Assembly (NCBI GenBank): GCA_019751945.1
Contig: JAIEMT010000028.1
Span: 13,705 to 77,704, forward strand
Direction: 5' to 3'
Origin: a bacterium
GTDB taxonomy: Bacteria > Bdellovibrionota > UBA1018
Length of the DNA stretch: 64,000 bases
Part shown: in pieces, positions 6,784-32,420 of the stretch
Position numbering within the stretch: position 1 is the first letter of the stretch
Layout: every line of letters starts with the position of its first letter
Program-made: the position numbers and the translations under genes
The notes under the pieces: generated by a model
What the model saw: the letters and a program-made list of their open reading frames with translations, nothing else
Databases searched by the model: none
Told to the model about the DNA's origin: nothing

Positions 6784-7026
6784 ATGAATAAGCCAATGAT
6801 CACTGCTCTGCTGGTAATGTTTAGTTTCAGTAACTTAGCGCTCGCCAATGACCCCGCTCCGCAAGCAAGCGGTTCGGTGCAAGAACTGCGTCAAGAAGTG
6901 AAGGCTCAAAAACGAGCTGTTCGCAAAGAACGCAAAAAGCTGCACGAGAAGAAAATGGAGCTTCGTAAAGCTGTGAAGAGTCAAAAATCCGACGAAGTCC
7001 AATCGACTCCGGGCGCCCAACAGTAA
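6784..7026 (+). CDS. Small secreted lysine-rich protein (hypothetical)
   Basis: 80 aa with signal peptide MNKPMITALLVMFSFSNLALA followed by a K/E/R-rich helix-like region. Strong AAGGAGG Shine-Dalgarno 5 nt upstream of the ATG. Confidence 0.55.
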   Translation: MNKPMITALLVMFSFSNLALANDPAPQASGSVQELRQEVKAQKRAVRKERKKLHEKKMELRKAVKSQKSDEVQSTPGAQQ

Positions 7027-9462: not shown

Positions 9463-13111
<3,649 letters not shown>

Positions 13112-13115
<4 letters not shown>

Positions 13116-14551
13116 GTGAGCTCTCCTTGCAGCGAAAGGCTGGTAGCTCCCGCAATTTTCACGTTGAGAAACTTTCCGAGCAATTCGCGCTGACCGCCAC
13201 TCATGAAGTTCACCACACGATTGCAGGTCGTTCTGCCTGTCCAGACTCTGAGGTCTGTTTTTAATCCAACGGCAAGATTCTGGTTCTTCGCTTCGCCTTC
13301 GACCAAAATTTCCATTTCCTTACCGACGCGCGAAGCATAGCGCGCTTCAGCAATCTTGAGCTGATACTGCAAGAGTTCGTTGAGGCGGCGATTCTTGACG
13401 TCGTTCGAAACATCATCGACCATCTTTGCAGCGCGAGTTCCGGGACGGGGCGAATAAGCAAACGCATAAATATTGTCGAACTGAACACGATCTAAAAGGC
13501 GCAACGTCTGCTGAAAATCTTCTTCGGTTTCGGTTGGGAAGCCCACGATCAAATCGGTAGAGAGACCCACTTCCGGGTTCAGTTCCCTCAAGCGATCCAT
13601 CTGAGCGATATAAGATTCAATCTTATGGTGTCGACCCATTTTCTGAAGAACGGCGTTCGACCCTGACTGCACGGGAAGGTGTAAATGTCCTGCCAGCTTA
13701 GCAACCCCACCTTGGGACGCAGGAGCATAGCATTCAATCAGTTCATCGCTAAAATCCAGCGGATGACTGGAAGTAAAACGAATGCGCTTCAACTCGGCCA
13801 GGCGTGGATCGGAATCCAAAGCGCGTAGGAGTTGCGGAAAATTTTCTTCGCCAGCACGCGGTCCGACTTTTCCAATCACGTTGTGAAGCTCTTGGGGTTC
13901 TCGAAGTTTTGAATTGGGATTGCCCTTGCCGAAAGAGTTCACATTCTGTCCCAGCAAAGTAATTTCGCGGACACCACGGGCCACGAGTCGCGCCACATCT
14001 TCAACCACTTCATCGATGGTTCGCGATTTCTCTTTTCCGCGAGTGTAAGGAACAATGCAATAGGTGCAGTACTTGTCGCATCCCTTCATGATGTTGACGT
14101 AGGCTTGGGCCTTGTAACCAAAAATTTTTGTGTCCGTGGAGTAATCGTTCGCGCGATCAAAGTCGGCGTACATCACGTGGCGCTCGCCATGTTCCACTCG
14201 ATGAACGATTTCGGGCAGGTGATCGATGGCATCGGTTCCAACCACGAAGTCTAAGTAGGGAGCGCGCTTGAAGAGTTTTTCTTTTTCAAGCTGGGCCACA
14301 CAACCCGCCATTCCAATCAGGGGCTTCTGACCATCGGGGCGTTTTTTCAACGGACGAAGAGTGCCGAGCGTGGAAAGAGCCTTGTGGACCGCCTTTTCTC
14401 GAACCGTACAACCATTGAGTATAATGACGTGGGCGTCTTCCACCTGATCGGTGGCTTCAAGACCCTTTTCAGCCAGGAGCGCAGAAATCCGCTCGGAGTC
14501 TGCAACGTTCATCTGACAGCCAAAGGTTTGGACGAAAAACTTCTGATTCAC
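13112..14551 (-). CDS. miaB: tRNA-i6A37 methylthiotransferase
   Basis: 479 aa. N-terminal UPF0004 domain FVQTFGCQMNVADSE, radical-SAM CDKYCTYC (CxxxCxxC) and a C-terminal TRAM-like region. Confidence 0.9.
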
Positions 14552-14583: not shown

Positions 14584-15855
14584 TTAGGCCACACCGTTCA
14601 TACGGCCTTGGGCAATCTTAATGAGCTGGTCGGGCTCGGAGCTATCGACGGGGCAGACAGCTACTCCGAATTTAAACTTCTTCTGCATCGAGGTTCCAAG
14701 TCGTTGTAATAGCTCAGGAACATCCTGCGGCTTACAATCGTCTAATACCACTGCCACCTGCCCTTGCTCAGGCAACGCATACACGGCATCGGAGGAGCGA
14801 AACAGGAACTTCCGGATTTCCGACCGAAACACCTCAGCCGTGCTGCTATCCGGAACCTTCAAAAGCCCCACTGCAATCGACCCGAGCCCTCCGTTTTCAG
14901 GAGCCATCTGACTGGATCGGGCCAGGATAACGGCCTTTAATGCTTCGTAGTTCGTGAACTTGGGGAGGATCAAACTCAACGTCACATCCCGCCCAAGCGT
15001 CTTGCACTTGAAGCCGCCCTGATGGAGCTTCATAAATTCGTGAATCAGCAGGAACTCACTTCCCAGCCCTTCTTCGGTGCGAGTGAGAAACGCCTGCTCG
15101 GATTGAATGGTTCCAGCAAACGCGGAACTGGGTGAAGAAACCCCACCTTGGAAACCGGCGAGCGACTGACTCCACGATTGCTCCCAGGCTTTTTCAGCGC
15201 CGGTCTGAAGGTAGAATTGAAAACTGACTTCGCTTGGAAAAATTCGAACCTTCACTGCCGTGCCTTCTTCCGTGCGCGGGAGAAGCGCTGAGAAACAAAG
15301 ATCGACGGCGCGCCCCAGGCGATTGGGATCGGCCAACACGGGAGCTAAATCTTTTTCAGCACTCTCTTCTCGTACTTCGATGGTGAGCTTTCTCGTTTTC
15401 AATAACGAACGATTGGCATCGACCCGATTGTGAACAAGCCGAGAAAAATCCAGCTCGCGAAGGCGCGCGTGAAAGAGTCCGCTCTCAAGCGCTGCTAAAT
15501 CTAAGAGCGACGAAAGCGCGCGATTGAGTTTGTCGGCATTGTCTTTAGCCATGTCCACGAGTTCGTCCCGAGGGATGGGGCTGGATCCCGCGGATTGGAA
15601 ATCTTCTTTCAAAAGCGTGAGCGCATTCAGAACACCCATGAGCGGAGTTTTTAATTCATGAGAAATCAGCGAGAGCAGATTGGATTGAAACGCGCGAAAA
15701 AGTTCCGCATCCTTTGCGCTCAGTGAATGCGAAGGCTCATGACCGATCGCCATGTCGCTCAAGTCAATAGAACTGGAAGCGGGTCGAGACTTAGGCGAAC
15801 TCTTTGAGTTCCGTCGGGTCTTGGATCTCGAGTTTGATGAGCCAACCTTCTTCAA
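14584..15855 (-). CDS. Histidine-kinase-like protein with degenerate ATPase motifs and a degenerate GGDEF-like C-terminus
   Basis: The HisKA H-box ISHELKTPLMGVLNAL is present. The N-box Asn and G1 DxGxG are not recognisable. The C-terminal RSSDAVYALPEQGQVAVVL aligns to RxxDxxxRxGGDEF. The start is ambiguous: 15855 overlaps the gcvH-like gene by 65 nt, and the alternative ATG is at 15753. Confidence 0.6.
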   Translation of the reverse strand: MKKVGSSNSRSKTRRNSKSSPKSRPASSSIDLSDMAIGHEPSHSLSAKDAELFRAFQSNLLSLISHELKTPLMGVLNALTLLKEDFQSAGSSPIPRDELVDMAKDNADKLNRALSSLLDLAALESGLFHARLRELDFSRLVHNRVDANRSLLKTRKLTIEVREESAEKDLAPVLADPNRLGRAVDLCFSALLPRTEEGTAVKVRIFPSEVSFQFYLQTGAEKAWEQSWSQSLAGFQGGVSSPSSAFAGTIQSEQAFLTRTEEGLGSEFLLIHEFMKLHQGGFKCKTLGRDVTLSLILPKFTNYEALKAVILARSSQMAPENGGLGSIAVGLLKVPDSSTAEVFRSEIRKFLFRSSDAVYALPEQGQVAVVLDDCKPQDVPELLQRLGTSMQKKFKFGVAVCPVDSSEPDQLIKIAQGRMNGVA

Positions 15856-16156
15856 GCGGATCCTCCGAGACCATTTCAGGTTCGTCTGTGAGCACTGTAT
15901 TGAGTTCGTTGACGATGCCGGCGATGGGAGCCGTCACTTCAAAACTTCCGCGAACGCCATCGACTGTAATGAGGACTTCACCACGATCGAAGTCAGCGCC
16001 ATCGTCGGGAAAGCTCACACTTTCGACTTCGCCGATTTCTTCAATTGCCACCATGGTTAAACCCAACGTGACAATATGGCCCTTGCGTTCGAACCAAAGT
16101 TTTCCGTCCATCATTTCTCCGTTTTTCGGAGCAGAATCTTGAGCAGCAGGGACCAT
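15791..16156 (-). CDS. Glycine-cleavage H-protein-like (lipoyl-domain fold) protein lacking the lipoyl-lysine
   Basis: 121 aa. Aligns without gaps to GcvH over GEVESVSFPDDGADFDRGEVLITVDGVRGSFEVTAPIAGIVNELN...EGWLIKLE. The ESVK lysine position is Arg (CGC, plus-strand 15950-15952). AAGGAGAG Shine-Dalgarno upstream. Confidence 0.75.
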   Translation of the reverse strand: MVPAAQDSAPKNGEMMDGKLWFERKGHIVTLGLTMVAIEEIGEVESVSFPDDGADFDRGEVLITVDGVRGSFEVTAPIAGIVNELNTVLTDEPEMVSEDPLEEGWLIKLEIQDPTELKEFA

Positions 16157-16479: not shown

Positions 16480-17265
16480 ATGTCGCTGGGACGTTTTTCA
16501 AGGCTTTCACCTCCACTCATTCTGAGCTTACTGACATTCATGACGCCCCAGCTCGGTAACGCAGACCTTTCCATTCCGACGCTCAGCTACCCCAGTCCCA
16601 AAATTTCTGACTCGAAACGCCTGCCACGGGACTCGATGGCTTGTCAGTGGGGCGATGAGAGCACGCTTCCTGGTGAAGGAAATGCGCTTCAACTCACTCG
16701 CGACGTAGAAGATGTCGTGACCCCGAGCACCTACGAATGTTTGAAGTACGAAGAGAAAACACAACGCACCATGGATGACGGCGGAAACTGCGTGGGCGTT
16801 GGCGGTTACCAAGCCTGCTGCGGAATCTTGGATGAGTTTTATTCCAAGTCCTACGTCCCGGTGGAAAACAAGCCGATGAAGCCCGCCGAACTTTACACTC
16901 CCTGTCCGCTCGTCACGGACGAACAAATGCGACGCCAGCAAGCGGCTCCGCTCGGCCAACGCAATGACTTTTCCAACACCGAAGCGAAAACCATTCACGC
17001 GTTGCTGTTAAAATGTTCTCAAAAGCGAGGGCCCAACTCCCCCTTCACTCAGACATTGAGCCGAGACATTGAACGGGCCTATTCGGTTCAGCAACTTTCT
17101 CAGGCCGATCCGCCTCTCGCGGAAGAAACCAATCCGATCCCCGTTCGAAGAGCAGGGTGCCCTGGAAATGGGACACCTGAATGTAACGCTCTCGACCAAA
17201 GAGCCCGAAAATCGCCCGCAATGCCACCTGACGAGAAGCGTCTAGCCTACTGCTGCTGGCGCTAA
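16480..17265 (+). CDS. Secreted cysteine-rich protein (hypothetical)
   Basis: 261 aa. Signal-like SPPLILSLLTFMTPQLGNA, many Cys including CC pairs (ACCGILDEF, and the protein ends AYCCWR). No family recognised. Confidence 0.5.
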   Translation: MSLGRFSRLSPPLILSLLTFMTPQLGNADLSIPTLSYPSPKISDSKRLPRDSMACQWGDESTLPGEGNALQLTRDVEDVVTPSTYECLKYEEKTQRTMDDGGNCVGVGGYQACCGILDEFYSKSYVPVENKPMKPAELYTPCPLVTDEQMRRQQAAPLGQRNDFSNTEAKTIHALLLKCSQKRGPNSPFTQTLSRDIERAYSVQQLSQADPPLAEETNPIPVRRAGCPGNGTPECNALDQRARKSPAMPPDEKRLAYCCWR

Positions 17266-17462
17266 AATCTGCTTAGTTTTTAGCGTCTTACGCCAGATTT
17301 GACCTACAAAGCCCTGATTTCCCTCAATAATTGAGTCATTGACTCCGATAAAGAGACAGGTGAAAATGAGTAATAGAGTCGGGTATAGGTGTCGCCTGAC
17401 CCACTCCGGGGTAAGTACTTTAAGATAGGCCATTTTCGCCAGAAATTAAGGGGGAGCTTTCT

Positions 17463-19889
17463 GTGACGAAGAAAGTTTTATTCATTTCTATTTTTCTATC
17501 CATGCCGCTACTGGGCTCCACAGGAGCTAACGCTCTCGGGGCCGAGCCACTTTGTAGCTCTCGCTTTGAGCCCAACAGACAATGTTCGGGTCAGCAGATT
17601 TGTAAACTCACCAAGCAAAAAGATAATCTCTGTTTTCAAGGATACTACTATCAATGTGCCGATAACTGTCCCGGTGGCTCCACCACCTCGATGGGAAAAG
17701 CAAAGGCTCCCGGATCGGCGCAAGCCGGTTGGGGCGGACTTGAAAAGAAACCTGCCGCTGGAGCACCTGCTGCTGCAACGACAGCCGGCATCGGAATGAG
17801 CCCCCAAAACTACGGCGGCGGAAATCCCTATCCTCCAGCTACCACTGCTCCCAGCACAGGCACCGGAAAATACACTGCTTCGAAACCTGCAACGGGCGTG
17901 ACGTGTAGAGGTGAGGGCGGTTGCTACAAATCCGACGCTCTCGGAAATCAAATTCCTGTTTACGCGGACGGAAGTCCCGTGAATCCGCATGGCGGCCGAA
18001 CGGATGTCGCTGCGGGTGGTACTTATTATGACCAACGCGGTTCCGCTCCTCCTGCGAACAACGTTCCTGCTGGAGCGGTCGTGGGTACGAATAGCGACGC
18101 TGCAGTTGGCGGTGGCGCTGGTGCGGGATCGGAAGCTTCGCCTTCTACTGTCGGCACTAGCTCAGGCGGTGGTGCACCTGCGATTCCCGGAGGTCTCAAT
18201 GTCTCCGGAAGCGGCAACACCATCAACATTATTACAGGACAAGTTTCGAATAGCTCCTTGGGTGGCGGACCCGCGACGGGAGGCAAGGAAGGCGGAAATA
18301 ATACCGGCGGCGGCAAAAACGATTTGGCTCGAGACAAAGATGGAAATCCTGATCCTAGCGGCCGCACCCAAAAAGAAATCGACATGGAAAATCGAATGAA
18401 ATCGGAGGCGAATCTCCGTGACGCAGAAAAAGCTACTCCTTATGATAGAAACGGTTCAGCCCTCCTATCTTCGGATTCGAGCGACGCTTGCGATACCTCC
18501 AACGGCCTCACTGCTGGAACAGCTTTCGATACAAAATCCTCTTGCGACACTACCAGCAAACGAGTCAAAACTGCCGCTACCACCCGACAAGCTATCGAAT
18601 TAGGCGGTGCGCTGACTACTGGCGTGATGGGAACTATAGCAACTGCCCGTGCACAGAGCAGCAACGGCATCAGTGATGGTCTCGATGCCACTGCAAAATT
18701 ACAAAAAACGACTTCAATGCTTCAAATTGTTTCAGGCGCAGTGAACGGCTTCTTTGGATTTCAACAAAATGAACGAGCAAGTGGTCACGAAGAAACTGCC
18801 AAGGCTATCAAAACGAATGTGAAGAATGAATCATTCATTATGGATAAAGGCGACAAGAACAACGACGGAACAAATGCAGGCGAAGACGGATTTATCCACG
18901 CCAACGAAAATAACGTCATGGCTAAAAATGCGCGGGCTAGAATGACCTTTGGATCATTAGTTGCCGTTCCCGACTCCCCAGAACACATGGCAGGCGGAGT
19001 CAATTCCACCAACGAGAATGCTCGTCAGGTTCTCCTCGCAAAACGAGAAAAAGGAAAAATAGCGAAGATGGGACAACTCAATGAGTTCACCACGAGTATG
19101 CGCAGCCGAGGTTCTCAGGAACAAAATCAAGCCGCTGAGCAAGCAGCCAACGGTGCGACCGATTCCTTCGTTGCTGCTGCCACACAAACCGTTCAAGGCA
19201 TCTTCAACTACATGGGAGCAAAACAACTCGAGCAAGCTTCCGAGAAATTGAAAAACATTCAACAGCCCGGCTCAAACCTGGCTCCGAGTTATGGTTCCGA
19301 TGCTGTTGGCGACGGTTCGGGCGCACGCTCCGCACAAGTCATTACCGGTTCAGGTAAAACTGCCGAACAATCGGCAGCAATCGATCCCGGTTCAGATACG
19401 AACACCACCGGCATGGGCGACTTAGGCCCACAACAAGCTTACGGCACACCTCCCAACACGACTCCGCAAGGCCCGACACCTGGCAACCCGGTTGCTAAGG
19501 GACCGACGGGTGCACCAGGTGGTGGCGGTGGCGGCGCGCCTGGTGGATCGGTTTCGACTCCGCCAGCACAGGCCAAGGACGACCGGCCTCCGGCGCAACT
19601 TCCGATGGGAAGCAACCCGAACAGTTACGCTGCAGGCGGAACTCCTGGCGGTGGCCAAGCCAACAAAAACGGCGCAGGTCCTGACCTAAGCGGCTTGCTC
19701 GGCAAGCTCTTAAACTTCGGCGGTGAAGAGAAGAAGCCGACGGATAGCATCTTGAGCTACGGCACTGCTTCACGCAATCCCGCTTCCGAAGGCGGTGCCT
19801 TTTTTGGAGCCAATGTAAATCTCTTCCGGCGCGTTCACGACACCCTTCAAAAGAAACAAGGAGAAGGTCGGGTCGGCGTCGGAATCTAA
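17463..19889 (+). CDS. Large secreted Gly/Ala/Pro/Ser/Thr-rich protein (cluster protein A)
   Basis: 808 aa. GTG start preceded by a GGGGGAG Shine-Dalgarno. Signal peptide MTKKVLFISIFLSMPLLGSTGANA and a Cys-rich N-terminal patch. Long low-complexity tracts, a poly-Gly run, and a C-terminal motif shared with the next three genes. Confidence 0.7.
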   Translation: MTKKVLFISIFLSMPLLGSTGANALGAEPLCSSRFEPNRQCSGQQICKLTKQKDNLCFQGYYYQCADNCPGGSTTSMGKAKAPGSAQAGWGGLEKKPAAGAPAAATTAGIGMSPQNYGGGNPYPPATTAPSTGTGKYTASKPATGVTCRGEGGCYKSDALGNQIPVYADGSPVNPHGGRTDVAAGGTYYDQRGSAPPANNVPAGAVVGTNSDAAVGGGAGAGSEASPSTVGTSSGGGAPAIPGGLNVSGSGNTINIITGQVSNSSLGGGPATGGKEGGNNTGGGKNDLARDKDGNPDPSGRTQKEIDMENRMKSEANLRDAEKATPYDRNGSALLSSDSSDACDTSNGLTAGTAFDTKSSCDTTSKRVKTAATTRQAIELGGALTTGVMGTIATARAQSSNGISDGLDATAKLQKTTSMLQIVSGAVNGFFGFQQNERASGHEETAKAIKTNVKNESFIMDKGDKNNDGTNAGEDGFIHANENNVMAKNARARMTFGSLVAVPDSPEHMAGGVNSTNENARQVLLAKREKGKIAKMGQLNEFTTSMRSRGSQEQNQAAEQAANGATDSFVAAATQTVQGIFNYMGAKQLEQASEKLKNIQQPGSNLAPSYGSDAVGDGSGARSAQVITGSGKTAEQSAAIDPGSDTNTTGMGDLGPQQAYGTPPNTTPQGPTPGNPVAKGPTGAPGGGGGGAPGGSVSTPPAQAKDDRPPAQLPMGSNPNSYAAGGTPGGGQANKNGAGPDLSGLLGKLLNFGGEEKKPTDSILSYGTASRNPASEGGAFFGANVNLFRRVHDTLQKKQGEGRVGVGI

Positions 19890-19915
19890 ATCCAAGTCTT
19901 AGGGGGACTTCGATA

Positions 19916-21199
19916 GTGACGGGGGAAAAGCAGCGTACTTTGAAGCAGTCCAGCGGGATGGGTCTATTGGCCATTCTACTGGGACAGCTCGGAGTTTTTT
20001 CCACACCTGTGATTTATGCAGCCGACATCGGCTCCGTTTGCGATGGCCCCTCACAAGCGAATATGGATCAACAGCAGCGCCAGCAATATTGCGACGCTGC
20101 CAAGTCTTCGAAATCTTCTGCCAATGCCAACGGCATCATGTGGAAAGTGTGGGCTGGCGTGGCCACTGTTTGCACCGCTGCCTGCGCAGCCACTTTAATG
20201 GGCCAACCGTGGAACCAATGGGTTTGCACCGGTTCGAGCTTAGCAGGCACGGGCGTCGACGCCGTGGTGACTAAGAATCTTCAGACCGCAATGATGGGCA
20301 TTCTCGGCGCAGGTGGAAGCTACATGATCAACAAGACCATGAATAAAGGGGAAACCCCAAAAGTCGGCGCCGATGGAAAAACAAAGCGCCCGGACGATTA
20401 CGGCTCCTGCTTCACCGCTGCGACTTCTGCCCTTCAAACCATGCAAAAAAAGCAGGCTCAATCTTCTGATGAAGGTTCTGTGAGCAGCAATTTAGAAATG
20501 GCTCAGCAATTGGGAAATAGCCCCGCTGCTGCCTATCGCACCGGTGGCCCTGAGGTCGCCGACACTGCGAAATCAGGCGGTCTGGGAATGAGTGTGAAAT
20601 CTGCAGGCATGTCTCCTGCTCAAGCCACGCTCGGCAATATTGCATCCGCCTGCGGTTCGGGTGCTGCCAATGGGAACAGCAAAGCCCAAGTCGCCTGCGC
20701 GCTAGCCATGGACGGAGGGCTTCCAAGCTTTGTCAGCAGTCCGAAATTCGCGAGCGATTTTCAAAAAGCTTCCGGACAAAGTTTAAGTGACTTCTTGAAC
20801 AGCCCGAACGACAACGCAAAAGCCGCATTAGCTGGAGCCATGGGCGGATCGCTGTCCAATTCTCAAAACGTGCAGCTTGCTTCGGCGCTCAACAAAGCAG
20901 AAAAAGAAATCGCACTCGCTCACCCGGTTGCAGGCACGACTTACGCAGGCGGCGGTGGAGGCGGCTACGGCGGTGGCAAGCACTCAGATCCCACGGCTGG
21001 CTTTGGGAATCTGATGCAGGGCCTGATGGGAAAAATGAACGGCACGGAAGAAGCCCGGCCCGGAACGAATCAACAAAATTTCAGACAAGTCGCTTCTCTT
21101 TCTCCCGATGCGATTGTGGAAGATCGCCGCATCAGTCTTTTCCAACGAATCACGCAGCGCTATTCTCAGCATCAACATGAATTGGGAGGTGTTCCATGA
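19916..21199 (+). CDS. Secreted/membrane-interacting Gly/Ala-rich protein (cluster protein B)
   Basis: 427 aa. GTG start with an AGGGGGA Shine-Dalgarno 8 nt upstream. Signal-like MGLLAILLGQLGVFSTPVIYA. Shares the Cys-framed hydrophobic segment with C and D, plus the poly-Gly and C-terminal motif. Confidence 0.7.
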   Translation: MTGEKQRTLKQSSGMGLLAILLGQLGVFSTPVIYAADIGSVCDGPSQANMDQQQRQQYCDAAKSSKSSANANGIMWKVWAGVATVCTAACAATLMGQPWNQWVCTGSSLAGTGVDAVVTKNLQTAMMGILGAGGSYMINKTMNKGETPKVGADGKTKRPDDYGSCFTAATSALQTMQKKQAQSSDEGSVSSNLEMAQQLGNSPAAAYRTGGPEVADTAKSGGLGMSVKSAGMSPAQATLGNIASACGSGAANGNSKAQVACALAMDGGLPSFVSSPKFASDFQKASGQSLSDFLNSPNDNAKAALAGAMGGSLSNSQNVQLASALNKAEKEIALAHPVAGTTYAGGGGGGYGGGKHSDPTAGFGNLMQGLMGKMNGTEEARPGTNQQNFRQVASLSPDAIVEDRRISLFQRITQRYSQHQHELGGVP

Positions 21200-22848
21200 A
21201 ATCACTCCTCCTGATTTTATTTGCTTCGCTGGCTCAAGCGGCGGATACGCCGATCAAGCTCGATCCACTAAAAACAGATTGCGACAGCGTTTGCGGCGAT
21301 TTACTCAGTCTCAATAAGAAGCAAGCCGGCGGTGACGAAAAGAAAATGATGAATCAGGTTTGGACTGCCTCGGACGACGCTTGGTGCGGAGCTCACGGCG
21401 TTTCCACTTCCTCGAAGACTCTTGAAAAACCAGAATCTGAAGTGGTTTCTGTTCCAGGGTGTCCTTACACGGTCACCAAAGCGGACTTAGATGAGGCCAA
21501 AGGCGATCCCAACGCCGCCTGTAACTCGGTTCATCGCTACGTCCGACGCTGCCAGCTTCACAACAGCCAGGTCGAGCCGCAGTGCCTGGCTTACTCCGCA
21601 TCCAATCAGGGAAAAGACCTTCAGATGATCATGCTGGCTCTCGACATCACCGGCACCGGAATCTGCACGGGTTCATGCATGGCCTGGTGGGAAGGTCCGG
21701 TGGCGGAAGGCGTTTGCAAATACACGAGCATGGCCGCCGCAGTGACAGAACTCCTCGGAGTGATTTCGATGAACCAAAGTCCCGTCGGAAAAGCGATTTC
21801 TGGATTGGCTTCTAGTGCAACTCTCGTCAACGCTGTGAATCCCGAGATCGTCGAATCCGGAGCGAAGAGCGTTGGCGCCATGCTCTCAAAAACGAAGCCG
21901 GTTGATAAAATTCAAGATCAACTCGGTGGCGGCGGAAAACGAGGCTCTGCTTGCTTCACCGCTGCGATGCTCGGTGTAATGACGGGAGTGCGTGCTTACA
22001 ACTTATTGAAAGTCGACAAGACTCGCGATCAAGCTTGCAGCGAAGTGCAACGTCTTCAGAGCCAAGCAGCTCTTAGTGACAACGCCAACACCGGACCCAT
22101 CAGCGGATTATCTCTAGCCCCAAAAGGCGGAATGGCTGCCGGCACCTCTGGAACCGCGGGAGTCAGTGCTGCGAAAGGAAGTTCAGGGACCATCGCTTCG
22201 GGCTCTGGCTACAAATCCACCCTGACAATTCAATCACTGCCCTCACAAGCAGCGGGAACATTGGAAGGCGGATTCTTTTCGCAACCAGGCGCAGCTACAC
22301 TCATGACGGGCCCGGCGAATCAGGTTCTCAACGCGCTGGCAGCAAATGCTCTTCAAACGGAAGGACTTGCTTCACTCATTAAAAAGGCTACCGATCCTCG
22401 CGCCGCTGAAATGGCCACACGAATGGGCAATATCGCGCAGCTCGCGCAGCAAGAAGCGCCGAGTTTAATGGCGGGCCCTCTGGCTCGAAAAGGTCTCATG
22501 ACAAACACCGCCGATACTTACAGCGCCCCTGCGGGTGGCGGACCGGGAGGCGGTACACTCACTTTAGGATTTGCCCCAAATTCAGGTCTCTATGGCTCTC
22601 CATTGGGCTTAGGAGGCGGCACGGTTCAAGAAACTCAGTTTAATAAAGGCCTGAGCGCCAAAAATTCTTCGGTCGCTGGCGACGACATTTATCACGCTGG
22701 ATGGCCGGGTAGCATCTTTGATATCATTACGGTGCGGCTGAAAGAGAGCCGCGATCGCGTCGACAAACTCGAGTGGGCATCGCCCCTCAATCGCGCGCTG
22801 ATGGGGTTACCGAACAAACCGATCTCGGGGGGAAGTGCAAAAAAATGA
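21196..22848 (+). CDS. Secreted Cys-framed Gly/Ala-rich protein (cluster protein C, paralog of D)
   Basis: 550 aa. ATGA overlap with B. Signal MKSLLLILFASLAQA. The conserved blocks CDSVCGDL, DDAWCGAH, PGCPYTVT and QCLAYSAS align with D. Confidence 0.75.
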   Translation: MKSLLLILFASLAQAADTPIKLDPLKTDCDSVCGDLLSLNKKQAGGDEKKMMNQVWTASDDAWCGAHGVSTSSKTLEKPESEVVSVPGCPYTVTKADLDEAKGDPNAACNSVHRYVRRCQLHNSQVEPQCLAYSASNQGKDLQMIMLALDITGTGICTGSCMAWWEGPVAEGVCKYTSMAAAVTELLGVISMNQSPVGKAISGLASSATLVNAVNPEIVESGAKSVGAMLSKTKPVDKIQDQLGGGGKRGSACFTAAMLGVMTGVRAYNLLKVDKTRDQACSEVQRLQSQAALSDNANTGPISGLSLAPKGGMAAGTSGTAGVSAAKGSSGTIASGSGYKSTLTIQSLPSQAAGTLEGGFFSQPGAATLMTGPANQVLNALAANALQTEGLASLIKKATDPRAAEMATRMGNIAQLAQQEAPSLMAGPLARKGLMTNTADTYSAPAGGGPGGGTLTLGFAPNSGLYGSPLGLGGGTVQETQFNKGLSAKNSSVAGDDIYHAGWPGSIFDIITVRLKESRDRVDKLEWASPLNRALMGLPNKPISGGSAKK

Positions 22849-24596
22849 AATCTCAATTCGCACTGATTCTTCTCGTCACCCTTCCCCTCTCGTCACCTGC
22901 GTTTGCAGACGGCTGTGACAATATCTGTAATGATCTCGTCTCCAGTTCTGATGGATCGTGGGACATCGTCACTCGCGGTGGCGGTAAAGGTTCAATCAAA
23001 GGCATTCCGGGCCAAGGTGGGGCCGGATGGGATTCCGCCGACGACAATTGGTGTAGCTTTCACAAAAATGGCAGCTCCGCTGGCTCGGCCTTCGATGGAA
23101 AGGGGCCGAACGATCTCGTTGCAGCGCCAGGCTGTCCTTATCGCGTAACGAACTCGGACGTCGCTGCCGCTGGAAGTGCTGCCAATGCTTGCGAATACGT
23201 GAGCAAGGGCGTGAAGCGCTGCGATCTTCGCGGCGGACAGATTGAAGAACAGTGTTTAGCGTACATGTCGGCCGGTGACGGATCGAAGTGGCAGTACATC
23301 TTACTCGCACTCGACTTAACGGCTGCAGGTTCCTGCGCGATGGCTTGCTTCAGCAGTGTCGCCTCCGGTGGAACGACGGAATCGGTTTGCCAGTACGCCG
23401 GCATCGCTGCTGGTGGTACGGAATTGATTGCAACACTTGCGATGAAGAACAGCACGGTTGGAACTTTGATCAACGGCGTGGCTGCAGGTGCAGGCGCTTA
23501 TTCTGCTAACGCCCTATGGACTCAAAATGGCGGCGGTGTTCAGAACATGGGAATATTTCAAGGTAGCGGCGGAACCGGTACCGCGGCAGTGAATCCCAAC
23601 GTGGCAGATGCGGGCGGAATTCAAAGTCAGATCAATGCGGCCTATGCGCCAAAACCCACTGCTCCAGTGAGTACCGCTGGCAACTACAGCCAACCGCTTT
23701 CTCAATCTCAACAGGCTTACAACCAAGGCACCCAAGGCGTGCACATGGGACAACAAGTGGATCCGGTCACAGGTAATACTCCAGCACAAAACGCTGCAAA
23801 GCCCACTCAAGCTCAAGAAACAAAAACCAAAGCCTCGTGCTATGCAGCCGCCGCATTCGGCGTGCTGACCGGCCTTCGCGGTCACAGCATCCTGGGCATC
23901 AAGAAAACCAAAGACCAAGCGTGCGGACAGATCCAATCGCTGCAAGGAAGTCAGAACGTCGCCATCAACTGGAATGGAGTTCCGGGAATGGCCGTCTCTG
24001 CTAGCCAAGGTGGCATCGGATCAGGCGCCAATCAGGGCGGCCTCGGCACGGGCGGCAGCATTGGAAAACTTCCGCAAGGTATTGCTGGCGTTCCTCCGGT
24101 CGCCCTTCAAGCAGTGGATGGAAATCTTCTCAGCAAAACAGGTCTCGACAGAGCGTTGGGTTCGGAAGCAAGCAAGCTGAACCCCGACGCCATCATGAAC
24201 ACTCTTTCTAGCGGCGGTGCGGGCGGCCTGATGAAAAGCGCCCTTGGCAATGCAGCCAACACTCCCGCTGGAGATTCCCTCACTCGACTCGCTCAGACCT
24301 CGCAAGATTCGGCGACCGTCTTCTTAGGCGCAGTCCCAGGCGCCACGATGATGGGCGGAGGCGGCGGTGGAGCAGGCCCGAGCGGAGGCGGAAAAGAGCC
24401 GGGTTTTGCCGGAGCCCTTGCTTCCCTCTTAGGTGGCGAAGGCGGCGATCGATCCCCCGCAGGCGCTTCGATGACCAATTTCGGAAATCCAGCTGGAAAT
24501 ACCGATATTTGGCATGCCGGTTCGACCGACAACATCTTTCAAATCGTCACTCGTCGAATCGAACGCGTTACCAGTCGCGTGGTTCAAAATCGCTAG
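22845..24596 (+). CDS. Secreted Cys-framed Gly/Ala-rich protein (cluster protein D, paralog of C)
   Basis: 583 aa from the ATG at 22845 (ATGA overlap with C; the ORF track starts at 22773). Signal MKSQFALILLVTLPLSSPAFA. The blocks CDNICNDL, DDNWCSFH, PGCPYRVT and QCLAYMSA align with C. Confidence 0.75.
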   Translation: MKSQFALILLVTLPLSSPAFADGCDNICNDLVSSSDGSWDIVTRGGGKGSIKGIPGQGGAGWDSADDNWCSFHKNGSSAGSAFDGKGPNDLVAAPGCPYRVTNSDVAAAGSAANACEYVSKGVKRCDLRGGQIEEQCLAYMSAGDGSKWQYILLALDLTAAGSCAMACFSSVASGGTTESVCQYAGIAAGGTELIATLAMKNSTVGTLINGVAAGAGAYSANALWTQNGGGVQNMGIFQGSGGTGTAAVNPNVADAGGIQSQINAAYAPKPTAPVSTAGNYSQPLSQSQQAYNQGTQGVHMGQQVDPVTGNTPAQNAAKPTQAQETKTKASCYAAAAFGVLTGLRGHSILGIKKTKDQACGQIQSLQGSQNVAINWNGVPGMAVSASQGGIGSGANQGGLGTGGSIGKLPQGIAGVPPVALQAVDGNLLSKTGLDRALGSEASKLNPDAIMNTLSSGGAGGLMKSALGNAANTPAGDSLTRLAQTSQDSATVFLGAVPGATMMGGGGGGAGPSGGGKEPGFAGALASLLGGEGGDRSPAGASMTNFGNPAGNTDIWHAGSTDNIFQIVTRRIERVTSRVVQNR

Positions 24597-24647: not shown

Positions 24648-24723
24648 GGGGGTATAGCTCAGTTGGTAGAGCGCTTCCATGGCATGGAAGAGGTCCTCGG
24701 TTCGAGTCCGTGTACCTCCACCA
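24648..24723 (+). tRNA. tRNA-Ala (anticodon GGC)
   Basis: 76-nt cloverleaf folded by hand: acceptor GGGGGTA/TACCTCC with the G3:U70 Ala identity pair, anticodon stem CTTCC/GGAAG, loop ATGGCAT (GGC), T-loop TTCGAGT and encoded CCA. There is one U-U mismatch in the T-stem. Confidence 0.9.
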
Positions 24724-24770: not shown

Positions 24771-24913
24771 AATGCACGGCAGATTTGCCAGGAGGGCAAA
24801 TCTAGCGAGGAACCCCCTCAGACGTCGCTCCAAAAAAATTCTCTCAATGCACGGCAGATTTGCCAGGAGGGCAAATCTAGCGAGGAACCCCCTCAGACGT
24901 CGCTCCAAAAAAA
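24771..24913. repeat. Perfect 68-bp direct repeat x2 (period 75 bp)
   Basis: Copy 1 (24771-24838) and copy 2 (24846-24913) are identical base for base and separated by TTCTCTC. Each copy contains a 9-bp-stem hairpin AGATTTGCC-AGGAG-GGCAAATCT. Confidence 0.9.
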
Positions 24914-24979: not shown

Positions 24980-25417
24980 TCATGCGGACTTGCTCCCGCG
25001 ATTTTTCATTTCGGGAAGACTCTCGAGTTCGCTCACCACGACTGTGATCTCAGCCTTAAGTCCTTTGATCAGATCCGCAGCACCGGTGACGCTCCCACCT
25101 CTTCCAATCTGTTCAATGCGGGCACAGAAATCTGCCATCTGAGTGGCTCCTAAATTTGCTGAACTGGATTTCAATCCATGACTCTCTGCACGGAGTAAAT
25201 CGGCGTTTCCCGCTTGAAAGGCTTTCTCAATCTTTGCAAGACGCTCCGGAATGCTCTGGATGAACATATTCAACAAGTTGACAAAAAATCCCGGGTCCGA
25301 ATCCGATTGCAGCTCCCGAATCTCGTTAATGATATCGATATTGATCGGTTTACCCATTTTGGCCAATCCCTCTCCATAGAGAGTCCTATTACTTTTGGAA
25401 TGAATCGGCATATTCAC
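24980..25417 (-). CDS. Stand-alone histidine phosphotransfer (Hpt) protein
   Basis: 145 aa. Hpt signature LRAESHGLKSSSANLGA (HxxKG/S-type phospho-His helix). Divergent from the hybrid kinase genes. Confidence 0.8.
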   Translation of the reverse strand: MNMPIHSKSNRTLYGEGLAKMGKPINIDIINEIRELQSDSDPGFFVNLLNMFIQSIPERLAKIEKAFQAGNADLLRAESHGLKSSSANLGATQMADFCARIEQIGRGGSVTGAADLIKGLKAEITVVVSELESLPEMKNRGSKSA

Positions 25418-25500
25418 GAAAAAAACTTAGCACCATTCTTCATAGTTTTTTGAATCAAATTCGGGAACTTAGATTCCGAAAAGCTCTGTAGGGAAACCAC

Positions 25501-28386
25501 GTGAAAAAAATTCGGGACCTCACCCCAAAAGCAGTCGTCTACCCGCTCGCAGTTTTCGGGTTCCTCTTTTTAGCGACTCTGAATATTTGGCACGGCTTCG
25601 TTCAAACCGAAGCTCGTCGAAACCAGCTTGCATCAGCCGACCAAACCGAAAACATCGCTCAGCAAGTGGAACGCGGACTCGAAGAACGCGTCACTGGATT
25701 GCAACGCATGGTGAGCCGCTGGGAATATCGCGGCGGAACACCCAAGAATGAATGGGTCGCTGACATTTCCAATTACTATCGCGATATGCCGGGCTTCTTG
25801 GCATTTTCTTGGATCGACCAAGATTTTATTATTCGCTGGATCTATCCTGAAAATCTCAATCAACATATTGCTGGGACAAGTGCTCGTCGCAGCGAAGAAC
25901 GGATTCACGCACTCGACTTAGCTAAACTGACTCACAAGCCTGCGTTCACACGATCCGTGGACCTCTTAGTGGGCGGCATTGGATTCGGACTTTACCTCCC
26001 TGTCTACGTCAAAGGAAAATTTCAGGGAATTATTTCTGCTGGATTTCGCCACCATGAACTGCTCGGCAAACTCGTCCACGCGGAGGGGTACCTGGTTCAG
26101 ATTCGCGAGGATAAACAAGTCATTTTCAATTCGGACAACAAGGCACCTACTCCACAAACTTGGGCAGCTACGAAAGTTTTGAAATACCGCACGCTGGAAT
26201 GGACCATCGAAGTGAGTCCTACCACTGCGGTTCCCACCTCTCCCGAAGAAACCGCCTTGACCTGGTTGGTTCTACTAGGTGGAATTCTCTTCGCAATCTT
26301 AGCAGGTGCACTGGTCCGCTACTTCCTGATCTTCAGAGAACAAGAAGCCAAAGCTCAAATAAGTTTACAGTGGCAAAACGCTATCTTTGAAAGCACCCCC
26401 CAACTCATCATTGCAACGGATCCTCGAGGAGTGATCGTCACTTTCAACCCCGCCGCAGAAAAATATCTCGGGTACAAAGCCTCCGAGGTCATTGGAAAAC
26501 TCACACCTCTAGCCTTTAGAGATCCAGCTGAAGTGGAAGCCAAAAACAAGGCCCTTACTGAAGAATTAGGAACACCCATCAAGCCTGGCTTTGACACCTT
26601 AGTTGAAAAAGCAAAACTGGGCGTCGTTGAAGAACAAGAAGTCACCTATGTCAAAAAAGATGGAACCAAGATGGCGGTTTCACTAATCGTCTCCGCCATT
26701 CGGGACTCCAACGGAGAAATCAGCGGTTACCTCGGCGTAGTTTCCGACATCGCTGCAAAAAAACAGGCGATTGCGGCTATAGAGCAGGCTAAAGAATCCG
26801 CTCTTGAAACATCCAAGGCCAAAAGCGCGTTTTTGGCCAACATGAGCCATGAAATACGTACGCCACTCAATGGCATCATAGGCATGACGGATCTCCTCAT
26901 CGAAACCCCACTAGATGAGCAGCAAAAACGCTGGGCCAAAATCATTCAGGACTCCGGAACCGGTCTTCTCAACATCATCAATGACATTCTGGATTTCTCA
27001 AAAATTGAAGCAGGAAAACTCAACCTTGAATTAATTAATTTCCGTCTCGTCAGCGTCATCGAGGGACAGATCGAACTTCTCACCGCGCGCGCGAGAGAAA
27101 AAAATATTTCTCTGATGGCCTATATCGATCCAGCAATTCCGGAGAATATTCAAGGAGACCCGGGCAGAATCGGACAAGTTTTGCTGAACTTGACTGGAAA
27201 CGCAGTAAAATTTACGAACCAAGGATCCGTGGTGGTGAGTGCCTCGCTAAAACAGGAAAGCGCAGACAGCGTGGTAATTGAATTTAGCGTGAAAGACACA
27301 GGAATTGGAATTTCAGAATTACTAAGAAAAGATCTCTTCGCACCCTTTACTCAAGCAGACAGTTCAACCGCACGAAGATTCGGCGGAACCGGCCTGGGTC
27401 TTTCGATTTGTAAAAGACTCGTCGAGCTTATGGATGGGAGCATCGGCGTCGACAGCGAATTAGGAAAAGGTTCCAACTTTTGGTTTACTGTCCGACTCAA
27501 AAAACAAAAAACGGCAGAACTCATTCATCTGGATCGATTCATTGAACTCAAGGGTCTGCGGGCCCTTGTCGTGGATGACGATACTCCTTCCCGCGAAATC
27601 GTCTGTAAATACTTAGAAAGCTGGGGTCTCGAACCCACTGTAACGGACAACGGCCAAGACGGCTTAATGATCCTCAAACGCGAAAAGGTTCAAGGAAAGC
27701 CATTTGATCTAGCCATTGTCGATAAGCGCATGCCGGGAATGGACGGCTTTCTTTTACTAGAAAAGGTTCAACAGACCGACGATATCGCAAATACGCCCGT
27801 TATTCTGATGACGGCATTTGATCGCTCAAATCAATTCGACTCCGCAATTCAAGCGGGCTTCAAGGGGTACATTACGAAGCCCATTAAGCAATCAGAACTT
27901 TACAATAGCATTGTGAATTCGGTCGCACCGGCCTCCCAAATTCCAAAAAAAGAGTCCGTGGTGCCAACAACTTCTCAAGCACAGATGGTCGGCGACAAAC
28001 CATTCCGGATTTTGATAGCCGAGGACAACGGCGTCAATCAGCTTCTGATTCTGACCATATTAAAAAAACTGAAGTATCCGGCTCTTGCCGTTGCAAACGG
28101 AAAGGAAGTTCTCGAAGCCGTAGCCAGTGCCCATTACGACCTCATCCTCATGGACTGTCAAATGCCTGAGATGGATGGATTTCAGGCGACCCAAGAGATT
28201 CGTAAGCGAGAAAAAGAAACCGGAATCCATATTCCCATCATTGCTCTCACCGCCAATGCGATGAAAGAAGACGAAGACCGCTGCTTAGCTGCAGGCATGG
28301 ACGGATACCTCTCTAAACCCATCAAGGTCGACAAACTCACCGCCATGCTGGACCGATGGCTAATAAAAATAAAGAAGGTCGGGTAG
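25501..28386 (+). CDS. Hybrid sensor histidine kinase (extracytoplasmic sensor, PAS, HisKA, HATPase, 2 x REC)
   Basis: 961 aa with a GTG start. Two TM segments flank a periplasmic domain of about 230 aa (CHASE-like, tentative), followed by a PAS region. H-box [11 protein letters not shown] and G2 [11 protein letters not shown]. Receiver domains have DKRMPGMDG and [10 protein letters not shown]. Confidence 0.9.
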
Positions 28387-30144
28387 ATGAAAAAGGACCG
28401 AGAGATCTACCTAAAAATTGCTTCAGAATCCCGATTTGCATCGTTCATCTACTTAGTACTCTTTTGTGCTCTTGGCTTTCTCACTCCGATTTTTAGAGAA
28501 TTTCCAATTCAGTGCCTTCTTTTTGGGATTGGGTTCTTTCTTGCCGGAGTTGCCCGCTACATTCTGTCCTCTAAGTTTTCCAACCAGAGAATTAGCATCC
28601 TCACTTTCAAGAGATTCTACTCCAGCACTGTGCTTCTGAGCGGAGCTCTCTGGGGGTATTTCTGCTTCTTGAACATTTTACGCTACGGAGTCACTCCTAC
28701 CACTTTAATTGTCTTACTTCCTACCGCCGGAATTGCCAGTGGATGCGTGATGAGTCTGGCACTAGTTCCTAGAACACTGATCACGCAACTCTTACTCTTA
28801 CTCGTTCCGGTGATTGTAGGATTCGTCGTTCAAGGAGGAGAAAGCTCAACAGCTTACGCCGTCCTGAGTAGCATCTACACGATTTACCTCATTCTGCTTT
28901 CAAAGAATCTCGCTGAAAGTTCTATGGCGAGCTTGGAGAAGACAGTCATCATCTCTCAACAGAAGGAGGAACTGGAGCTGGCTTGGGAGAAAGCGGAGAT
29001 GGGTGCTAGAACAAAATCAGAATTTCTAGCCATGATGAGCCATGAAATCCGAACCCCTCTCAACGGTGTTCTGGGAATGACAGGTCTTCTTCTCGATCAA
29101 GATTTAAAGGCGGAAGCAAAAGGTTTTGTAGAAACCATCCGAAGCTGCGGTGAAAACTTACTCGTCATCATCAATGACATTTTAGATTTCTCAAAGCTCG
29201 AATCTGGAAAAATCGCACTCGAGAATCACAACTTTGAATTGGTTCATTGCGTGAGTTCTTCAATTCAATTTTTTGAAAGCCTTGCCCAGAAAAAGGGGTT
29301 GTCACTGACTTACTATGTGGATCCGAGCTCTCCAAAAATGTTCATCGGAGACGCGAATCGGGTTCGCCAGATCCTGGTCAATCTCATCAGCAATGCGGTG
29401 AAGTTCACTGAAAAGGGATCTGTGGACATTACGGTGACTTCTTCACAAAAAACCATCAACCTCCACGAACTTCGGTTCGCAGTGGTGGATACTGGAATCG
29501 GAATTCCATCCGAAAATCTCCCAAAGCTCTTTCAATATTTTTCTCAGGTCGATGGCTCTGTCACCCGCAAATACGGCGGAACGGGTTTGGAACTCGCTAT
29601 CTGTAAACGCCTTTGTGAAATGATGAACGGTCAAATCTGGGTTGAAAGCGAACCCAACAAGGGTTCTGCCTTCTATTTTACAATTCAGGTTCAAGTAGCC
29701 GCTGACGATGCTGTCCCATTCACTGAAGAAATCATTCCGAAAAGAAGTGTCCGAAACAAAAAGCGGATTCTTCTTGCAGAAGACAATACAGTGAACCAAC
29801 TTCTGGCAGCAAAACTTTTAGAAAAAGCCGGCTATCACACCGATATAGCCACCAACGGAATTGAAGCAGTTCAGGCCGTTAAGGATTTCAATTACGATCT
29901 CGTTTTGATGGACTGTCAAATGCCTGAACTAGATGGGTACGAGGCAACACGGCAGATCCGACGAATTGAAGAATTCAAAGACCTCCCGATTGTGGCGCTC
30001 ACGGCGAATGCGCTTCAAGGAGACCGGGAGCAATGCCTCGCTGCCGGAATGAGCGACTACATTTCTAAGCCTGTGCAGTACTCTGAACTGGTTAAAATAT
30101 TAGATAAGTGGCTTGGACCTTCTGAACAAAAAAAAACAGGCTAG
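28387..30144 (+). CDS. Hybrid sensor histidine kinase (multi-TM sensor, HisKA, HATPase, REC)
   Basis: 585 aa, starting 1 nt after the previous stop. About 5-6 N-terminal TM helices. H-box [12 protein letters not shown]2-like GGTGLELAICK and a receiver with MDCQMPELDG. Confidence 0.9.
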   Translation: MKKDREIYLKIASESRFASFIYLVLFCALGFLTPIFREFPIQCLLFGIGFFLAGVARYILSSKFSNQRISILTFKRFYSSTVLLSGALWGYFCFLNILRYGVTPTTLIVLLPTAGIASGCVMSLALVPRTLITQLLLLLVPVIVGFVVQGGESSTAYAVLSSIYTIYLILLSKNLAESSMASLEKTVIISQQKEELELAWEKAEMGARTKSEFLAMMSHEIRTPLNGVLGMTGLLLDQDLKAEAKGFVETIRSCGENLLVIINDILDFSKLESGKIALENHNFELVHCVSSSIQFFESLAQKKGLSLTYYVDPSSPKMFIGDANRVRQILVNLISNAVKFTEKGSVDITVTSSQKTINLHELRFAVVDTGIGIPSENLPKLFQYFSQVDGSVTRKYGGTGLELAICKRLCEMMNGQIWVESEPNKGSAFYFTIQVQVAADDAVPFTEEIIPKRSVRNKKRILLAEDNTVNQLLAAKLLEKAGYHTDIATNGIEAVQAVKDFNYDLVLMDCQMPELDGYEATRQIRRIEEFKDLPIVALTANALQGDREQCLAAGMSDYISKPVQYSELVKILDKWLGPSEQKKTG

Positions 30145-30230
30145 AGAACCTCGCACCCACCCTTTGGATGAAATAGTTTCCAGAATATTTCCGGCAAAAA
30201 AATGGCGGGCCAAAATCTCCTCCCGCCTCA

Positions 30231-31655: not shown

Positions 31656-31673
31656 TGCTACGCTCGTATCAGA

Positions 31674-32363: not shown

Positions 32364-32420
32364 GTTTGACAACTACTCCGACTCCAGATCGCTGATATTT
32401 CTTCCGATAAGTCCTCTAGC

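Follow-up and report, generated by a model that had tools for sequence, protein, structure and literature searches.

Four consecutive genes in a 64,000-nucleotide stretch of Bdellovibrionota DNA (contig JAIEMT010000028.1; the whole stretch is hereafter called the window), which we designate A, B, C, and D, form an array whose protein family, fold, and four-type organization are undescribed within the reach of the libraries that we searched. Scans of related loci with subtype hidden Markov models (HMMs) show that the predicted subunit types and their order are conserved, and profile comparison shows that all four types have just one part in common, a C-terminal module of ~80 residues. We tentatively favor a model in which the four products would form a stoichiometric, disulfide-stabilized, membrane-associated hetero-complex of the cell envelope, joined through this shared module. 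If true, the array would specify a new complex of the envelope or of cell-cell interaction, as well as a new protein fold family. Positions are given in window numbering; codes L001–L023 denote fetched contigs of relatives, and P numbers denote individual homologues.

A conserved array of four subunit types

A preliminary description of this DNA had noted four plus-strand open reading frames (ORFs), and both their coordinates and their lengths were confirmed (Table 1). The mechanical ORF of D opens earlier, at a GTG (22773, extending to 24596), and the in-frame ATG at 22845 gives the 583-residue protein. We place the start of D at this ATG based on GGGGGGAAG upstream, the leader MKSQFALILLVTLPLSSPAFA↓DG (here and below, the arrow marks a predicted cleavage site), and near-identical orthologues that begin with MKSQFALILL. 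The sequence GGGAGG lies ahead of the ATG of C, and ATGA overlaps join B to C (21196–21199) and C to D (22845–22848). The Shine-Dalgarno sites of A and B, the 26-nt gap that separates these genes, and both overlaps were all present as originally noted, and the overlaps and Shine-Dalgarno sites bear out the proposal that the genes are tightly coupled in translation. The sigma-70-like promoter located in the 197-nt gap 5' of A is a candidate only, because such sites do not exceed shuffle expectation in this region.

C and D align over their full length (BLASTP E = 3e-32, 34% identity); each has 12 cysteines, which fall in matching columns. B scores 95 bits against the D-type HMM. With the HMMs of their own subtypes, B, C, and D score 422 (B-type), 447 (C-type), and 404 bits (D-type), respectively. 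By these comparisons, B, C, and D are full-length paralogues. All three contain the elements that define the family: an invariant CxxxC helix, a third cysteine, an 'AC..AA' helix, a poly-Gly hinge, and the tail (N/S)(I/L)F.(I/R)(V/I)(S/T).R. The B/C/D profile did not detect gene A, a member of a distinct A-type group that invariably occupies the first position of the array. The homology of A to the others is limited to the C-terminal ~80 residues, and we rejected A as a full-length member of the B/C/D group. Comparison by hhalign matched the module of A to the B-type alignment (98.5%, E = 2.9e-15, 80 columns) and to a mixed B/C/D alignment (97%, E = 7.8e-11). The earlier claim that all four proteins are mutually related thus holds along the full length of B, C, and D, but for A through the C-terminal module only.

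The A-type tail shares with the others the elements poly-Gly, GPDLSGLLxxFLPK, SILxFG, and NVNIFxRIHETYQ. The module starts near residue 438 of C (nt 22507) and near nt 24336 in D, and its end is specific to the subtype. The B-type signature reads RSPAxxxEDRxLSIFDRVTYRYxxV and the D-type signature DIWHxGTxxNLFEIVSxKIxKVxxRV; C-type proteins carry the D-type tail together with LDWSTPLNRALxGLP. These C-terminal signatures classify 60 D-type, 20 C-type, and 60 B-type proteins among the top 149 sequences. In the window, B ends with SLFQRITQRYSQ behind a G6 hinge, D carries the tail DIWHAGSTDNIFQIVTRRIERVTSRV, and C carries the extra tail VDKLEWASPLNRALMGLP. A protein of mixed character, P0149, is encoded between an A-type and a B-type gene in L022 (8001–9296) and combines a B-like core with the A-like tail LFERIHKAYESKHRAGLVG. 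This combination suggests that the C-terminal module has been exchanged or that the A and B types are linked by intermediates.

Scanning of the fetched loci with subtype HMMs detected the complete A-B-C-D array in the window, L005 (an Oligoflexia metagenome-assembled genome, or MAG), L015, and L023. Arrays of A-B-C were found in L019 and L021, A-B in L016 and in L013 (where the contig is cut), A-B'-B in L022 (also cut), and C-D in L006, L010, L011, and L012; solitary D-type genes were found in L003, L004, L007, and L017. Orthologues of A head the arrays in L005, L013, L015, L016, L019, L021, L022, and L023. The orthologues are 21–40% identical to the window proteins, and intra-array spacers range from -4 to 61 nt in the window, L005, L015, L019, L021, and L023. 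The gene neighborhoods therefore reveal an ordered array that, as read from HMM assignments, is kept in other lineages. A coupled array conserved at 21–40% identity is a pattern typical of a stoichiometric machine.

Comparison of the window with the strain-variant contig L001 shows that the array genes are real and under purifying selection. In C and D, which lack internal stops and differ mostly at synonymous positions, the ratio of nonsynonymous to synonymous polymorphism (pN/pS) is 0.029 and 0.079, respectively. GGG accounts for 3.7% of Gly codons in the four genes versus 15.2% in the 39 other ORFs of the window, whereas the GC content of third codon positions is alike (0.52 in the four genes, 0.53 in the rest of the window). 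Avoidance of GGG fits selection on translated Gly tracts. The window and L001, a metagenome contig, share long stretches of identical nucleotide sequence, which take in A, B, and gene U (the ORF upstream of A). Their divergence is confined to discrete patches (11750–12500, 15000–15250, and 22000–24500), the largest of which comprises the 3' part of C and the whole of D (pS 0.34 in D). This patchiness points to recombination between strains or to a chimeric strain assembly.

We built a whole-length profile from A–D and ran an exhaustive HMMER search over 1.84 billion cluster representatives. At E <= 1e-3, it yielded 333 homologue clusters, of which 197 reached E <= 1e-10 and 25 reached E <= 1e-30. 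The majority of the homologues are 400–600 residues long and aligned end to end. All are of metagenome or MAG origin; cluster look-ups returned only unnamed entries or entries called 'hypothetical protein', one of them labeled Bdellovibrionota bacterium. A pattern scan of genomes located relatives in Bacteriovoracaceae, Oligoflexia, and Bdellovibrionota MAGs. Taxon labels are few, and every labeled relative comes from a MAG of one of these three groups, which fits the earlier guess of a Bdellovibrio-like host. Synteny between the window and such MAG contigs likewise points to a probable Bdellovibrionota host. Pattern-based scans restricted to C/D-type motifs located five loci in genomes, three in metagenomes, and none in viral contigs (IMG/VR). 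Word-index homology searches (with C alone, 50 full-length members, or 25 sequences trimmed of low complexity) returned essentially the queries; the sole additional protein, P0120, was already contained in the exhaustive search, which alone recovered the family. These searches probably failed because Gly/Ala-rich words swamp candidate selection.

No characterized family emerged from these comparisons, in agreement with the preliminary description, and confident matches of all four proteins to such a family were not obtained. Pfam, NCBIfam, PHROGs, and PADLOC returned nothing for A–D or ORF U, with A–D lacking any Pfam or NCBIfam match at E <= 1. Among 50 family members and nine A-type members, no Pfam or NCBIfam model, toxin models included, matched at E <= 0.01 save for one weak NCBIfam match to SctB in one of the 50 (E = 0.0096). 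Searching PDB sequences with the family profiles gave no match at a meaningful E-value, and a literature search found nothing relevant to the array family. We rejected a phage or defense origin owing to the lack of PHROGs and PADLOC matches, of IMG/VR relatives, and of significant structural matches in BFVD.

Predicted architecture of the subunits

At all four N-termini, inspection by eye and hydropathy analysis identified a hydrophobic core preceded by a basic n-region and followed by an AXA-type site (ANA↓LG in A, IYA↓AD in B, AQA↓AD in C, and AFA↓DG in D). The Sec-type signal peptide that had been proposed for each protein is thus matched by leader features in four of four, which suggests that A–D are exported via Sec. 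Regular-expression scans for the prepilin motif of pilins, the lipobox [LVI][ASTVI][GAS]C, and sorting-signal motifs (type IX secretion system C-terminal domain (T9SS-CTD), PEP-CTERM, LPXTG, and GlyGly-CTERM) were negative in all four proteins. Sorting-signal and autotransporter models in NCBIfam and Pfam likewise did not match the array proteins.

Gly, Ala, Ser, Thr, Pro, Gln, and Asn together account for 62.9% of residues in A, 59.5% in B, 54.2% in C, and 62.2% in D. Runs of six glycines (G6) occur in A, B, and D; C contains only G4 and GGGPGGG. An earlier characterization of the proteins as low-complexity sequences dominated by these residues is accurate as to composition (54–63%) but overstated, inasmuch as roughly half of each of B and C is modeled with confidence as α-helix. 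The AlphaFold models of C and B, with a mean predicted local distance difference test (pLDDT) score of 65 and 72.7, respectively, are both all-α and show helical cores. Confident helices in the C model span residues 25–195, 250–300, 365–435, and 507–524. The long helices of high confidence (block means mostly >85–90) comprise residues 126–162, 168–194, and 247–298 in C and residues 51–94 and 162–201 in B. A small helical domain follows (residues 365–435 in C and 235–335 in B), and the protein ends with a short C-terminal helix. The helical parts are separated by segments with pLDDT <50, which correspond to Gly/Ser-rich tracts. The models thus portray the array proteins as folded helical modules on disordered linkers rather than as low complexity throughout.

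Protein B comprises a leader (residues ~1–35), a long helix that ends in the hydrophobic stretch IMWKVWAGVATVCTAACAATLMG (residues 74–96, nt 20135–20203), the second long helix, and the small helical domain. In A, the leader (residues ~1–24) is followed by an N-terminal stretch rich in cysteine, a long disordered region rich in glycine, a helical core (~340–600), and the shared module. The corresponding hydrophobic helix of C, which contains CxxxC, spans residues 143–162 (nt 21622–21681). Four cysteines are invariant across 50 members: C157 and C161 (the CxxxC pair on one helix), C174, and C253; the same four are found in B. Cysteine counts are mostly even, with eight in most B-type proteins (including B itself), 12, 14, or 16 most commonly in D-type proteins, and 12 each in C and D. 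For the core helix of greatest hydrophobicity, the median Kyte-Doolittle value over 19 residues is 1.64–1.75, at the usual threshold for transmembrane helices.

The AlphaFold and Foldseek analysis that had been proposed for these proteins was carried out for B and C and revealed no significant structural match. The best match of the C model in the PDB has E = 0.84 (AhlB/SmhB, TM 0.07–0.12, probability 0.04) and in BFVD E = 0.23. For the B model, the best PDB match has E = 1.7, and AhlB/SmhB are absent.

Possible functions of the array

Bdellovibrionota include the best-studied bacterial predators; to our knowledge, most of the envelope and invasion machinery of this phylum is unassigned. The presence of four subunit types in fixed order, coupling kept over deep divergence, Sec-type leaders, mostly even cysteine numbers, a helical stalk with a hydrophobic turn, and a common module suggests stoichiometric co-production for assembly in the envelope. 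In the model that we tentatively favor, Sec would export each protein across the inner membrane, after which the leader would be removed. In the oxidizing periplasm, the conserved cysteines would lock an elongated, all-α stalk whose turn region is a borderline-hydrophobic helix with the invariant CxxxC. Disordered linkers rich in Gly, Ser, Asn, and Gln would join the stalk to the small helical domain, followed by the poly-Gly hinge and the C-terminal module of ~80 residues, the last part of which is an amphipathic helix. Through their fixed order and coupled translation, the genes would supply the four types in matched amounts, and the types would assemble, probably via the C-terminal module, into a membrane-associated hetero-oligomeric complex of the envelope. 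The disulfides, the association with membranes, and the location in the envelope are likewise putative; the most likely role of the shared module is that of an assembly handle.

Several considerations weigh against this model. The hydrophobic core helix reaches the transmembrane threshold in only ~60–70% of members, contains a conserved Asp in C and D types (LALD), and may simply form the interior of a soluble bundle. Solitary D-type genes and shorter arrays (A-B in L016; A-B-C in L019 and L021) indicate that the full four-gene set is not obligatory. In the loci examined, none of the neighboring genes with a known function recurs closely enough to hint at a process. Hetero-assembly of the subunits is a step that we infer, and leader cleavage, disulfides, and localization are read from sequence alone. 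The minor pilin and pseudopilin sets (FimU-PilVWX and GspHIJK) resemble the array in being four related, specialized paralogues in fixed order, and those of type IV pili and type II secretion systems form one hetero-oligomeric tip complex. None of the four array proteins, however, has a class III leader (G↓F(T/S)LIE) or an N-terminal hydrophobic α1 helix; their fold and size are entirely different, and they match no pilin model in Pfam or NCBIfam. Unlike bacterial lipoproteins, the array proteins contain no lipobox, and their predicted cleavage sites are of the AXA type.

An alternative that we judge unlikely is that the array encodes a Sec-dependent, multi-component α-helical weapon, released by an unlinked route, whose hairpins would insert into the prey membrane to form a pore or translocon, similar to tripartite alpha-pore-forming toxins (alpha-PFTs). 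These toxins of the ClyA superfamily (AhlABC, SmhABC, NheABC, and Hbl) are likewise composed of paralogous, elongated, all-α components encoded side by side in an operon and have a hydrophobic helical hairpin at one end of a long helical stalk; the array resembles them in its fixed-order operon of paralogues and its elongated all-α stalks with a hydrophobic turn region. Labeled relatives of the array proteins belong to a predator-rich phylum, which is consistent with a weapon at the level of the phylum only; AhlB and SmhB rank first, non-significantly, among Foldseek matches for C, and one member has the weak match to SctB, a translocon protein of the type III secretion system (T3SS). However, the structural matches are at noise level (E = 0.84, probability 0.04, TM ~0.1) and were not reproduced with the B model, for which reason we rejected the resemblance to alpha-PFTs. 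Neither the C nor the B model displays the ClyA-like fold (a five-helix bundle tail and a hydrophobic head) in Foldseek comparisons, and the one alpha-PFT feature present, co-encoded paralogous components (ordered A-B-C-D arrays in four lineages), is generic. Neither A–D nor family members match any toxin family in sequence, and the array has no linked outer-membrane secretion system. Alpha-PFTs undergo extensive refolding, which the invariant cysteines within the hydrophobic hairpin would impede. The array has four subunit types rather than three, and its 8–16 conserved cysteines, long disordered Gly/Ser linkers, and shared C-terminal module have no counterpart in alpha-PFTs. Hydrophobic translocators of the T3SS (SctE/SctB) and chlamydial Inc proteins also are α-helical with a central hydrophobic hairpin, but they are exported by the T3SS without Sec leaders; the SctB match is a lone one among 50 members, and no T3SS genes lie in the neighborhood. 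We consider very unlikely a related possibility, namely that the array specifies a Bdellovibrionota-specific, Sec-exported, four-component α-helical machine that inserts into membranes at the cell interface (a prey-membrane pore or translocon, or an invasion device), has a fold unlike known pore-formers, and is co-transcribed with tRNA-Ala(GGC).

The position of the module at the very end of the protein, past a flexible poly-Gly hinge, and its status as the sole element common to all four types would also be expected of a sorting or anchoring tag for unlinked machinery (comparable to T9SS-CTD, PEP-CTERM, and type I secretion system (T1SS) signals), with the four proteins as independent cargo such as adhesins or matrix proteins. 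The existence of solitary D-type genes and the exchangeable module suggested by P0149 in L022 are consistent with this explanation, which we nevertheless regard as rather improbable. Among the top 150 matches, the module occurs only on family proteins (a whole-length profile was used, so that module-only proteins could be missed), and it matches no known sorting-signal model. Its type-specific tails (DIWH...IFQIVS, SIFDRVTYRY, and NIFERIHETYQ) fit specialized partners better than a common receptor. RTX exoproteins of T1SS similarly contain Gly-rich sequence ahead of a conserved, uncleaved C-terminal segment of ~60–80 residues that ends in an amphipathic helix, but Sec-type leaders are already present on all four array proteins, whose Gly tracts are homopolymeric rather than arrays of the GGxGxD nonapeptide (by regular expression, D has two isolated matches to this pattern, and A, B, and C have none). 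The array proteins match no RTX profile, and the flanking genes (gcvH, HisKA, miaB, Hpt, and hybrid kinases) include no adjacent ATP-binding cassette or membrane fusion protein genes. It seems equally improbable that the products are ordinary lineage-specific periplasmic or secreted proteins without joint function, kept in order by slow rearrangement of the core chromosome. Conservation of order is indeed not unique to the array, since guaA-guaB-miaB-HisKA-gcvH ... tRNA-Ala (with motAB further on) is syntenic in several lineages. Arguing against this explanation, overlapping or near-abutting stop and start codons are kept at 21–40% protein identity, every array position retains its own subtype signature, and the adjacency of C and D is kept on contigs with different flanks.

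Chromosomal setting and neighboring genes

The gcvH gene lies 5' of the array and divergent from it in the window, L015, L016, L019, L021, and L022. Beyond gcvH on the same strand are HisKA and miaB, followed, where the contig permits, by a gene for a hexapeptide transferase, guaB, and guaA. This conserved upstream synteny (guaA-guaB-miaB-HisKA-gcvH) indicates that the array is core chromosomal DNA rather than an island, and points to vertical inheritance of the locus. We rejected a mobile island at the tRNA because the array in the window lies 5' of the tRNA and is preceded by housekeeping genes in conserved synteny. ORF U, located between gcvH and A, was rejected as a fifth member: it occurs only in near-identical contigs and has no counterpart 5' of arrays at other loci.

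Table 1 Features of the array region and tRNA-Ala genes behind related arrays
Feature	Position	Strand	Remarks
gcvH	15791..16156	-	Divergent from array; Pfam GCV_H E = 7.5e-23; synteny partner, functional link not implied
ORF U	16480..17265	+	261 aa; 11 Cys; leader-like N-terminus; between gcvH and A
Candidate sigma-70-like promoter TTGACT-17-GAAAAT	17339..17367	+	Consensus scan, 9/12 matches
Shine-Dalgarno GGGGGAG of A	17450..17456	+	6 nt ahead of GTG 17463; direct reading
Gene A	17463..19889	+	808 aa; A-type subunit; GTG start; ORF list
C-terminal module of A	19611..19886	+	Residues ~717–808; Y-x-GG..., GPDLSGLLGKLL, SILSYG, NVNLFRRVHDTLQKK
Shine-Dalgarno AGGGGGA of B	19901..19907	+	8 nt ahead of GTG 19916, 26 nt past A stop; direct reading
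Gene B	19916..21199	+	427 aa; B-type subunit; GTG start; ORF list
Gene C	21196..22848	+	550 aa; C-type subunit; ATG start; ORF list
Gene D	22845..24596	+	583 aa; D-type subunit; ATG start
tRNA-Ala(GGC)	24648..24723	+	51 nt past D stop; ARAGORN, Rfam 63.8 bits
Perfect A/T-rich hairpin TTTTTTTCCG-GGA-CGGAAAAAAA	24725..24747	+	Directly 3' of tRNA; direct reading, unflagged by terminator scan
Hpt protein	within 24980–33404	-	Signaling cluster
CHASE-PAS hybrid histidine kinase, two receiver domains	25501–28386		Signaling cluster
Second hybrid kinase	28387–30144		Starts at base after 28386 stop
Receiver and HD-GYP-type protein	30231–31655		Signaling cluster
PAS-GGDEF protein	32421–33404		Signaling cluster
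L015 tRNA	13844–13919	same as array	62 nt past last array gene
L016 tRNA	10404–10479	same as array	59 nt past last array gene
L017 tRNA	10432–10505	same as array	60 nt past last array gene
L019 tRNA	10654–10729	same as array	66 nt past last array gene
L011 tRNA	2261–2334	same as array	97 nt past last array gene
L021 tRNA	11049–11124	same as array	203 nt past last array gene
L005 tRNA	6902–6977	- (opposite to array)	31 nt past last array gene
L023 tRNA	11694–11769	- (opposite to array)	832 nt past last array gene

Some gene callers start ORF U 20 codons later (241 aa). Directly downstream of the solitary gcvH is a 423-residue HisKA-only protein (14584–15855, minus strand) with no recognizable ATPase domain. 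Its true start is probably later, because the mechanical ORF overlaps gcvH and the JGI call is 389 residues. The gcvH-HisKA-miaB group adjoins the array in L019, L021, and L022, and likewise in L016, where the gene at the HisKA position has no Pfam match on record.

A tRNA-Ala(GGC) gene is found behind the last array gene in nine independent lineages, with arrays of one, two, three, or four genes (Table 1). The distance is 31–203 nt in eight of the nine and 832 nt in L023. This placement of array and tRNA-Ala(GGC) represents an unusual linkage between mRNA and tRNA. A terminator scan of the window found no terminator-like site between D and the tRNA, and a perfect hairpin lies 3' of the tRNA; together, these features make read-through from D into the tRNA plausible on the nucleotide sequence. 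The hairpin could plausibly act as a shared bidirectional terminator. The tRNA may have a promoter of its own, as suggested by -35-like boxes (TTGCAA or TTGCCA) in several spacers. The idea that the tRNA serves a codon demand specific to the operon was rejected; GCC and GCU together account for 60.6% of the Ala codons of the operon versus 56.4% elsewhere.

Just past the tRNA and hairpin is a perfect 75-bp tandem duplication (24771–24913; 1.9 copies, 100% match). Each 75-bp unit holds the inverted repeat GGCAGATTTGCC...GGCAAATCT and has no Rfam match. In L016, where the array consists of only A and B, a serine-recombinase (Resolvase) gene begins at 10450, at the 3' end of the tRNA (which ends at 10479), and is followed by many small helix-turn-helix, DUF3799, and CopG-like genes up to 19344. 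This 3' region looks like an integrated element with tRNA-Ala as its attachment site.

Downstream of the array in the window is a dense cluster of signaling genes (24980–33404). In three lineages, the flagellar stator genes motB and motA are encoded on the opposite strand, 1–6 kb past the array: L005 (12027–13593), L021 (16553–17359), and L023 (11849–13679, together with flbD). Both stator genes are absent from the corresponding position in the window. Their placement probably reflects synteny rather than a functional link. DUF4423 proteins are encoded in the window at 112–1098 and near the array in L019 (12103–12900); this family (TIGR02147), which we take to be expanded in Bdellovibrio and Fibrobacter, would fit the presumed host.

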